Position numbers and translations under genes: made by a program. A DNA stretch of 64,000 nt from Escherichia phage vB_Eco_ZCEC15. The stretch lies in the sequence record PQ871103.1. One strand, given 5' to 3'. How positions within the stretch are numbered: position 1 is the stretch's first letter; every line of letters starts with the position of its first letter. Below, piece after piece: positions 29,366 to 31,005 of the stretch. The notes beneath the pieces were generated by a model, which saw only the letters and a program-made list of their open reading frames with translations, made no database searches and was not told where the DNA came from.

Positions 29366-30145
29366 TTAATTAAAAATATATACTTCATCAGTTCCATTCT
29401 TTTCTTTGGAATGATATATGTTAAAGACGTATTTTTTATTAAGATGCTTAACATTATATTTTTTAGACCATTCTTTAAGAAGAGTGTTTTCCTTTCCGTG
29501 ATGCTCTAAAACATTCGACAGTCCAAATTTTATTCCTCTGTCATTTAAAGAATCTAAAAGATTTAAAAGGTCTTTTTCTTCTTCTTCTGACCAAAATTTA
29601 TTATAATCAGCAACTGTTATGAGATACGGAGGATCTACATATACAAAATCGCCGTCTAAAATTTTAACATCTTTAAAATGCAATGAACTAAAGATTATTT
29701 TATCACAATTTTGCTTAAAGTGATTAAAGCGTTTTTCACTATTTTTGTTTATAGTTCTTTTTCCAAACGGAGTAGTAAAATTTCCTTTATCGTTTATACG
29801 AATCATATTACTAAACCCGTGAAAATGAAGAACATAAAGTAAAAGAGGATCTCTAGTTTTATTATAATCTTCACGTAATTTCAAAAACTCTTCTTTTGAT
29901 GTTTTTGATAGTTTATATTGCTTTATTACTTTTAATACGTCATCCCATGATACATTAATAAGACGCTTATACATTTCAATAATTGGTTCTTGAATATCAT
30001 TGGCCAATACAGGACCATTGACGTTCAAAGACACTGATAAACCTCCACAAAATAAATCCACGAATCTGTCATATTTTGGAAAATGAGGCTTAAGTTCAGG
30101 TAATAATGACTGTTTATTACCTGTATACGCGATAGCTCCTAGCAT
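29366..30145 (-). CDS. dam: DNA adenine methyltransferase Dam
   Basis: 259 aa with DPPY motif (FVYVDPPYL); matches remembered T4 Dam. Confidence 0.9.
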
Positions 30146-30705
30146 TATATTCTCTCATTTATTGCAGCAAAAAACGAATTATATAATTCTTCATCATATG
30201 TATTTGATAGTAATACTAACACGTTTTGTGATTTAGCATATTCATTAAACCTTGCTTGGATGGTTGGATTATCAGTAAATGATTCTCTTTTTGTCCATTT
30301 ATTACGTGGATAATATCCGCATGGCAAAAAATCTAATATCATCAATGACACAGGGTTTTCAGTTTTTGTGTATTCTTTTAATTTCTCTTTATCTTCTAAA
30401 TATATTCCAACCGAATCAATAGCTGTACCTCCACCAACTTGGTGTTTAATTTCAATTATATGCTTTTTACCGTTGCGAGAAATAACAATATCAAATCTTC
30501 TAGTACGCTTCTTAGTTATAAAATTAGAACAAAACAAATTATTTGATTTTTCAGTATCATCGGTTAAAACCATTTTTTCTTGATAACTAACTGAACAATC
30601 AGTGAAATATTCTTTTACTTTATTAAGTATGAAATTTTCAACTACGGCAGATATTTTATATGAATCTCCGTTTAAAGCCATTTCATGCACAATTTTATTA
30701 ATCAT
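30145..30705 (-). CDS. hypothetical protein with PD-(D/E)xK-like nuclease motif, translationally coupled to dam
   Basis: 186 aa; [20 protein letters not shown] gives D72..E85-x-K87; stop TAA shares a nucleotide with dam ATG; GAGGATGAT SD; downstream of early promoter 30731-30760. Confidence 0.55.
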
Positions 30706-30730
30706 TATATCATCCTCAGCAATTTATTTT

Positions 30731-30760
30731 ATAATACCATAACAAGCTGAGAAAGTAAAC
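30731..30760 (-). promoter_or_regulatory. early promoter for the 186-aa ORF/dam/56 unit
   Basis: minus strand GTTTAC TTTCTCAGCTTGTTATGG TATTAT with UP element. Confidence 0.55.
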
Positions 30761-30804
30761 AAATTTATGAAATTTGTGATAAATATTAATTTAAAGGAGG
30801 ACAT

Positions 30805-31005
30805 ATGGCACAAAAATTAATGGCACTTGTTAATGCCATAAAAGGTAATAAAAAACGTATAGCTTTTACTATTTCTGCTATGGTAGGAATTTTACTCTGG
30901 AACTTTATTTTATCACCAATTGCAATTGCGCATGGTGTTAATATTCCAGTAGTTACTCTTGATACATTCGTAGATCTAGCATTTGCTTTAGTTGGGTTAA
31001 TTTAA
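30805..31005 (+). CDS. small membrane protein 66 aa on the opposite strand
   Basis: two predicted TM helices; AAAGGAGG SD 4 nt before ATG; GATAAATA late-promoter-like motif at 30779-30786; 3 prime end overlaps gene 61 stop. Confidence 0.45.
   Translation: MAQKLMALVNAIKGNKKRIAFTISAMVGILLWNFILSPIAIAHGVNIPVVTLDTFVDLAFALVGLI

Follow-up and report, generated by a model that had tools for sequence, protein, structure and literature searches.

The stretch of DNA analysed here, hereafter the window, comprises 64 000 nt of the Escherichia phage vB_Eco_ZCEC15 (PQ871103.1) and is a Tequatrovirus (T4-like) segment, with the Yersinia phage fPS-65 as the nearest record (99.9 % identity) across the interval examined. 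Within it, an open reading frame (ORF) of 186 codons, ORF186, lies directly upstream of dam, the gene for a GATC-methylating enzyme. The explanation that we favour, with a probability of roughly 0.55, is that ORF186 and dam form a horizontally mobile, Type II restriction–modification (R-M)-like cassette which is carried by a minority of T4-like phages, and in which ORF186 is probably related to DpnII/MboI. The features on which this explanation turns are as follows.

30145–30705, minus strand: ORF186, encoding a protein of 186 amino acids (aa) with a predicted PD-(D/E)xK restriction-endonuclease fold (PHROG 8706; 'hypothetical protein' in nearly all records)
29366–30145, minus strand: dam, encoding a D12-class GATC N6-adenine methyltransferase (Pfam PF02086, expectation value (E) 6.5e-51)
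30143–30147, minus strand: TAATG stop/start overlap leading from ORF186 into dam, read directly from the sequence

Base 30145 is common to the TAA stop codon of ORF186 and the ATG of dam (TAATG, from 30147 to 30143 on the minus strand), which confirms the shared nucleotide claimed in a preliminary description of this DNA made from its letters alone. Such an overlap would be a signature of translational coupling between the two genes.

A 20-residue motif that begins at residue 69 of ORF186 contains D72, E85 and K87, and the D72, E85-x-K87 signature is exactly where the preliminary description had placed it. The AlphaFold2 model, obtained with seven homologues (predicted local distance difference test (pLDDT) 79, predicted template-modelling score 0.79), has the alpha-beta-beta-beta-alpha-beta topology of the PD-(D/E)xK core fold, the complete order of elements being helix, helix, three strands, helices, strand, helix, strand, helix. 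D72 is located in the strand at 67–77, E85 and K87 in the strand at 80–88 and E23 in the helix at 15–33, such that D...(D/E)xK is found on adjacent strands with an acidic residue in the preceding helix. All four residues are unchanged in the eight family members compared, of which the most distant are 32 % identical, and the HQxxGTAIDS block that follows the catalytic residues is likewise invariant. Because the pairwise ratio of non-synonymous to synonymous substitution rates (dN/dS) is 0.04–0.33, ORF186 is, on these sequence comparisons, under purifying selection. Foldseek matched the model to MunI (PDB 1d02; template-modelling scores 0.59/0.56) and also to EcoRI; the best full-length match in fold is a Type IIP enzyme that cuts palindromes as a dimer. 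Among the structures closest to ORF186, Type II restriction enzymes form the commonest class, and NucS, XisH and other non-restriction proteins are also among the matches; DpnI is not among the fold neighbours listed. The model is a single 186 aa domain in which no winged-helix or other methyl-reader element was noted. Searches of PDB sequences with the ORF186 protein and with a profile gave no match, a scan of NCBIfam returned noise only, PHROG 8706 is labelled 'unknown function', and no curated family claims ORF186. The restriction-endonuclease-like identity put forward in the preliminary description is nonetheless borne out by the AlphaFold2 model, the Foldseek neighbours and the invariant catalytic residues, and ORF186 is confirmed, at the level of a structural model, as a PD-(D/E)xK restriction-endonuclease-fold protein; it is a compact predicted nuclease of the size of MunI, with a putative E...D...ExK active site.

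The ORF186 family is very small and its members stand next to Dam. A profile search of all 1.84 billion cluster representatives found 11 proteins with E <0.001, and two word-indexed searches, one of them with a profile that included distant members, found nothing beyond these 11. Neither the exhaustive search nor the second word-indexed profile search yielded bacterial homologues or bridging sequences, and all ORF186 contexts examined are T4-like phages or short contigs of undetermined origin. A D12/Dam-type methylase gene is located directly downstream of the ORF186 homologue in the metagenomic loci L005, L006 and L007–L011, and a D12 methylase gene is found in the same place in Dhakavirus MX01, the Jiaodavirus Klebsiella phage SmallBear, T2 and the window. 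At L012 a 4 nt overlap leads into a putative Dam ORF, assigned by its 64 % identity to the window Dam, and in Shinkou, judged by layout, a candidate downstream ORF of 261 aa, the length of the SmallBear Dam, overlaps by 7 nt. The ORF186 and Dam frames overlap or abut in seven of the eight loci. The pair occupies the interval between gene 56 and dam.1/61 in Tequatrovirus and Dhakavirus (gene 61 encodes the primase; dam.1 is a small plus-strand gene described below) and the interval between denB and ndd in Jiaodavirus, and at L006 it adjoins an rIIA-like gene. Identity to the window falls in parallel for ORF186 and the adjacent Dam, both measured against the window copies:

T2: ORF 98 %, Dam 100 %
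MX01: ORF 64 %, Dam 76 %
L007: ORF 57 %, Dam 72 %
L012: ORF 49 %, Dam 64 %
SmallBear: ORF 43 %, Dam 62 %
L006: ORF 37 %, Dam 53 %
L005: ORF 35 %, Dam 56 %

As expected of a Type II R-M system, the endonuclease-like gene adjoins a methylase gene, is inherited together with it and is found in at least two unrelated genome positions. The GC content of ORF186 (0.276) and dam (0.285) is low compared with that of the window (0.35), gene 56 (0.39) and gene 61 (0.34), which fits a foreign origin common to both. On the strength of the constant linkage to Dam, the differing loci, the co-divergence and the common low GC content, ORF186 and dam appear to move and to evolve together as a single unit of two genes. 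The preliminary description had suggested that a nuclease linked to a GATC methyltransferase might be either R-M-like or methyl-directed; the conserved, overlapping and co-diverging pairing favours the former, and the latter found no support.

The distribution of the two genes among relatives is uneven in a particular way. About 506 Tequatrovirus-type records match the region, and ~146 of these contain dam together with ORF186; ~350 (RB3, for example) carry neither, gene 56 then being followed directly by dam.1, and a T4-type group has dam without ORF186. By tblastn, ORF186 is present in 163 phage records (in 113 of them as a copy at least 99 % identical), T2/T4-type Dam (at least 90 % identity) in 181 and Dam-type genes overall in 513. 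Dam without ORF186 occurs in T4, KarlGJung, RB16, JSE and many other phages, and ORF186 without Dam was not seen among the 163 records, as judged from counts and samples rather than an exhaustive audit of each record. Occurrence of the methylase alone, with the endonuclease-like ORF never seen alone, is the asymmetry expected of a Type II R-M system. The comparison with T-even genomes that had been proposed in the preliminary description therefore reveals a presence/absence polymorphism of dam–ORF186 with sharp junctions. Its doubt that T4 has a counterpart was also justified, in that T4 lacks ORF186 through a deletion, one of two whose ends coincide with direct repeats.

30225–30232, plus strand: proximal copy of the 8 bp direct repeat TTTGTGAT, at one end of the T4 deletion
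30773–30780, plus strand: distal copy of TTTGTGAT, at the other end of the T4 deletion, overlapping the late-promoter-like motif of dam.1
30336–30343 and 30707–30714, plus strand: 8 bp repeat ATATCATC, at the ends of the KarlGJung deletion

Alignment shows that in T4 the 548 bp between the TTTGTGAT copies are deleted, and with them the promoter, the start and ~157 codons of ORF186, leaving its last ~29 codons as a remnant and dam in place. KarlGJung (Bas37) has undergone a separate deletion of 371 bp between the ATATCATC copies, which takes codons 1–121 of ORF186, including all four catalytic residues, and retains the promoter, the Shine–Dalgarno sequence, a 61 aa C-terminal remnant and an intact dam (record stretch 1709–2000). 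The two deletions are independent, and both remove the catalytic core of ORF186 and keep dam. That the nuclease is lost repeatedly and the methylase kept, the reverse never being seen, is what an R-M pair would be expected to show. In T2 the ORF186 copy is gene T2_032 (2001–2546 of the T2 stretch examined), and the ORF is present, unannotated, at 83–618 of M22342.1, the 1988 T2 dam record (M22342). The window Dam is 100 % identical to T2 Dam by tblastn and 97.7–98.8 % identical to T4 Dam. The 1988 T2 dam paper of Miner and Hattman reportedly describes an insertion of ~536 bp 5' of T2 dam relative to T4, without known homology, and T2 Dam reportedly methylates more extensively than T4 Dam, which would be in keeping with relaxed requirements on the orphaned T4 enzyme.

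The sole sequence-family signal for ORF186, in Pfam and in PADLOC, is the DpnII family, whose enzymes cut at GATC and are blocked when Dam has methylated the site. Pfam PF04556 (DpnII/MboI) is the top match for four of the eight ORF186 family members (best E 8.3e-5). PADLOC PDLC03548, which was identified as the DpnII family by its match to the DpnII sequence (8.5e-127), matches three of the eight (best E 5.3e-6), and PDLC03569, a short DpnII-related family of ~205 aa, matches one. The DpnII query scored 335.7 bits against its family, and database sequences then took its place. In addition, the GenBank record of phage Shinka labels ORF186 a 'putative DpnII restriction endonuclease'. An extended hhalign alignment is collinear, pairing ORF186 1–164 with DpnII 126–285 and residues E23 with E152, D72 with D201 and E85 with E214. 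ORF186 corresponds to DpnII ~126–288 only and not to its full length of ~280 aa, which includes an N-terminal helical region. The predicted DpnII structure is poor (pLDDT 66); the structure neighbours common to ORF186 and this low-quality model are Can2, BstEII, NgoMIV, AF1548 and VC1899, the top structures being BstEII and NgoMIV for the DpnII model and MunI for ORF186. Taken together, these comparisons suggest that ORF186 is probably a remote relative of the DpnII/MboI type, shortened at its N terminus, with scores below the family thresholds. The GATC recognition site that we predict for ORF186 is derived from its partner methylase.

Viewed against known systems, of which the Type II R-M pair with a PD-(D/E)xK nuclease is an established kind, ORF186–dam most resembles R.DpnII/R.MboI with M.DpnII of Streptococcus pneumoniae. 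In both, the partner is a D12-class GATC adenine methylase; the catalytic domains are collinear with an aligned E(helix)...RFDxVI...IEx block, and DpnII is the top sequence-family match of ORF186 in two independent libraries. The phage pair differs in lacking the N-terminal ~125 residues of DpnII, in its ExK compared with the ExN of DpnII, in its order, R then M with an overlap, and in its carrier, a virulent phage with hydroxymethylcytosine (hmC) in its DNA, whereas DpnII is bacterial. R.MunI, an EcoRI-class Type IIP enzyme, is only 12 % identical to ORF186, with no sequence-level homology detectable; it recognises CAATTG and has a different methylase partner. Chlorella viruses encode GATC-specific Type II R-M systems, for example R.CviAI/M.CviAI, and here too a lytic virus has an endonuclease together with an adenine methylase for the same site, with attack on non-self DNA as the proposed role. 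The hosts of those viruses belong to another kingdom, however, while the host DNA of T-even phages is already degraded by EndoII and EndoIV and their enterobacterial hosts are Dam-methylated. T4 Dam, regarded as an 'orphan' methyltransferase, is the product of the same gene as the window dam, paired in the window and orphaned in T4 by the 548 bp deletion. The Seg/Mob homing endonucleases are similar in that their genes are optional, occur patchily and lie between conserved genes, and in their plausible role in competition between related phages, but they have GIY-YIG or HNH folds rather than PD-(D/E)xK, and they protect self by polymorphism of the target site, whereas ORF186 is obligatorily paired with a methylase.

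Our current working hypothesis is that ORF186 and dam share one early promoter and are coupled in translation, and that the ORF186 protein, active and probably homodimeric, would cut GATC or GATC-containing sites in which the adenine is unmethylated, methylation by Dam shielding the phage's own DNA. Because enterobacterial hosts are Dam+, its targets are likely to be unmethylated rivals and not the host chromosome; the likely victims would be co-infecting dam-less T-even relatives, other phages and newly made or under-methylated DNA. The cassette would also act as a selfish, self-preserving element, and loss of the nuclease would leave an orphan Dam, as in T4. Catalysis, GATC specificity, the block by methylation and the biological target are all inferred. 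It is tempting to take the hypothesis further and to see in ORF186 an active, Dam-blocked, GATC-type restriction enzyme that serves virulent T-even phages as a weapon and a selfish element against one another, that cleaves the (hm)C DNA of other phages or of dam-less relatives in the same cell, that causes marker exclusion, drives spread of the cassette and has contributed to the extreme T-even depletion of GATC, and whose loss has left T4 Dam as a 'vaccine' from a vanished restriction gene; taken as a whole, this extended proposal is speculative and we consider it rather doubtful.

A number of observations weigh against the R-M-like cassette with a DpnII-related nuclease. The window ORF186 scores 16.8 bits against PF04556, for which the gathering threshold is 23, and the most divergent members (P0011, P0013 and that of SmallBear) are matched by no DpnII model. 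The hhalign comparison of ORF186 with DpnII gave E 1.7e-4 to 3.3e-4 with a probability of only 38–50 %; its confident stretch is 34 columns only, over the RFDxVI...IEx block, and both input alignments are of low diversity (effective number of sequences about 2–2.6). DpnII has N216 opposite K87 of ORF186. The T2 copy is 181 aa long with a frameshifted C terminus, and is separated from dam by a gap of 13 nt, without the TAATG overlap. The usual hosts (Escherichia coli, Shigella and Yersinia) are Dam+, so that their DNA is protected from a DpnII-like enzyme, and the glucosylated hmC of T-even DNA blocks most Type II enzymes.

Four other explanations were considered, all of which agree less well with a single-domain protein, its fold neighbours, its obligatory pairing with Dam, the asymmetry of loss and the signs of purifying selection. 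ORF186 might be a repair or recombination nickase or resolvase of the MutH, Vsr or Hjc type, which together with Dam uses GATC methylation for discrimination of strand or age. The PD-(D/E)xK fold is common to MutH, Vsr, Hjc and NucS, NucS, XisH and other non-restriction proteins are among the matches, and it is well established that host MutH is directed by GATC methylation; we nevertheless regard this role as unlikely, with MutH and Sau3AI not among the top fold matches, Type II restriction enzymes the most numerous of the closest structures, and no phage MutS or MutL partners near ORF186. An improbable alternative, in our view, is a nuclease that degrades host DNA, being either methylation-dependent in the manner of DpnI or specific for cytosine-containing DNA, with Dam topping up the methylation of host GATC sites and with hmC and its glucosylation sparing the phage. 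The location of the Jiaodavirus pair between denB and ndd, both genes of host-DNA shut-off, would suit such an activity, as would the early class of ORF186 and dam, and it is established that in Dam+ hosts only a methyl-directed enzyme has a target in host DNA. A nuclease of this kind should, however, persist without Dam in those hosts, yet ORF186 is never seen alone and Dam alone is common; its model shows one compact domain that lacks a winged helix or other methyl-reader module, and the one family to which its sequence points, DpnII, is blocked by methylation.

Mobility of the cassette could also be due to ORF186 itself, were it a free-standing endonuclease of homing type, with a PD-(D/E)xK fold and with dam as its cargo. 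The presence/absence polymorphism with sharp junctions and the different loci in different genera are what such an element would produce, and T-even genomes are rich in elements of this type, T4 segF adjoining gene 56. Cargo would be expected to vary, however, and Dam is the one constant neighbour, with overlapping frames and co-divergence; recurrent loss of the nuclease with dam kept better fits a toxin–antidote logic, and the Type IIP enzyme that best matches the fold over its full length is a dimer that cuts palindromes. We give homing little credence. The least probable explanation is that ORF186 is a decaying, catalytically dead relic that is kept for the promoter and translational coupling of dam. 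Its repeated loss with retention of dam, the frameshifted C terminus of the T2 copy and the truncated metagenomic versions P0003, P0007 and P0008 are in keeping with decay, but a dN/dS of 0.04–0.33, the invariance of the four catalytic residues and the HQxxGTAIDS block across proteins as little as 32 % identical, and the copies at least 99 % identical in 113 of 163 phage records are not.

The neighbouring genes and the signals likely to govern expression of the R-M-like cassette are arranged as follows.

28787–29320, minus strand: gene 56, dCTPase
30713–30717, minus strand: Shine–Dalgarno sequence GAGGA of ORF186, 7 nt 5' of its ATG
30731–30759, minus strand: early-type promoter-like site (G)TTTACT-17 nt-TATTAT with an upstream TG, 5' of ORF186
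30778–30785, plus strand: late-promoter-like GATAAATA, 5' of dam.1
30793–30800, plus strand: Shine–Dalgarno-like AAAGGAGG of dam.1
30805–31005, plus strand: dam.1, encoding a small hydrophobic protein of 66 aa (PHROG 2024, E 1.6e-31)
30820–30839, minus strand: terminator-like hairpin and T-run (ATGGCATTAACAAGTGCCAT + TAATTTTTGT), 3' of gene 61 and 5' of the ORF186 promoter
31002–32030, minus strand: primase gene 61

The interval between dam and gene 61, given as 857 bp in the preliminary description, measures 856 bp. That account had also credited ORF186 with its own Shine–Dalgarno sequence and early promoter. The former is present as GAGGA, and a promoter-like site does occur, but matches of this type are no more frequent in this AT-rich region than in shuffled sequence, and the site is weak evidence when taken alone. 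The promoter assignment derives mainly from position, namely from its location after the gene 61 terminator, the promoter annotated at the equivalent place in the JB75 record, and the retention of the site in KarlGJung, where the coding sequence is deleted. A terminator is annotated beneath the corresponding match in the fPS-65 and ASO78A records, and the hairpin and T-run at 30820–30839 would split the gene 61 transcript from the ORF186–dam unit. This hairpin sits within the dam.1 coding sequence on the opposite strand, and the same palindrome falls in the 5' part of the dam.1 mRNA.

The gene dam.1 is convergent with gene 61 in every case, with overlapping stop codons; in the window the overlap is 4 nt. 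It is found in T4, RB3 (in which 'dam.1' is the annotation name), the Mosigvirus RB69, the Dhakavirus MX01 and metagenomic relatives. In T4 it is encoded in the DNA and called in one record, and is unannotated in RefSeq NC_000866. The Shine–Dalgarno sequence AAAGGAGG and the late-promoter-like GATAAATA that the preliminary description had noted 5' of this 66-codon ORF are both present; in the named phages examined a NATAAATA motif holds a fixed position ~18 nt 5' of the dam.1 ATG, and MX01 dam.1 has a perfect late promoter, TATAAATA. The two transmembrane helices proposed for the product are upheld in part, there being one clear hydrophobic helix at about residues 19–42 and a weaker second segment at about 45–66 that holds two Asp residues. 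It is plausible, from these sequence features, that dam.1 encodes a late, small membrane protein. Its conservation, which had been left as a question, is clear from its membership of PHROG 2024, kept across T-even phages. It does not belong to the cassette but is a separate T-even gene, present in RB3 and RB69, both without dam and ORF186. A role for dam.1 as partner of ORF186, whether in immunity or in a holin-like function, was rejected since the gene is conserved in phages that have no cassette.

In the Klebsiella phage KP179 (Jiaodavirus; 292–1744) a different ORF, of 210 aa, lies at the locus where SmallBear has ORF186 and Dam. Its product contains a PD-(D/E)xK-like motif (KVDIVAS...LVIDVK) with weak matches to Hjc and Cas4, and the ORF overlaps a second D12-class methylase gene, annotated MjaIII-like, with an ordinary dam next (1801–2592). 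This locus may be a hot spot that holds another R-M-like pair, unrelated to the first.

None of the 256 tetranucleotides is more depleted in the window than GATC, with 72 occurrences observed vs 206 expected from trinucleotides (ratio 0.35); the next most depleted in Tequatrovirus sequences are TCGA (0.57) and GTAC (0.68). Over positions 1–50000 of each genome the GATC ratio is 0.35 in RB3, which has no cassette, and 0.16 in RB69, which has no dam. Depletion was accordingly rejected as evidence for the cassette, being the same in cassette-less RB3 and stronger in dam-less RB69, and because it does not track the cassette we regard it as a trait of the lineage, in keeping with prolonged exposure either to GATC-directed nucleases or to host Dam/MutH.

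Dam of T2 and T4 are textbook enzymes, yet what T4 Dam does in vivo 'remains unclear' according to a 2025 review (PMC12707154). In the library searched, no relevant literature came up on ORF186, on dam.1, on the T2 dam paper or on restriction encoded by Tequatrovirus phages. What is new here is the comparative case that the T-even dam belongs to a nuclease–methylase pair and that T4 is a deletion derivative. About 150 of the ~180 Tequatrovirus records with a T2/T4-type dam carry the nuclease gene, the classical phage T2 among them. On this comparison, the T-even dam is normally the downstream half of a nuclease–methylase pair, and T4, the laboratory model, is a deletion derivative. The pairing suggests where phage Dam came from and what it does, in a form that experiments can address. 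A strictly lytic phage with hmC in its DNA would also be seen to possess a restriction enzyme, with a bearing on competition between phages, on the choice and mixing of T4-like phages in therapy cocktails, and on GATC avoidance. The ORF186 family, tiny as it is and confined to T4-like or undetermined contexts, may also yield a compact new restriction enzyme.

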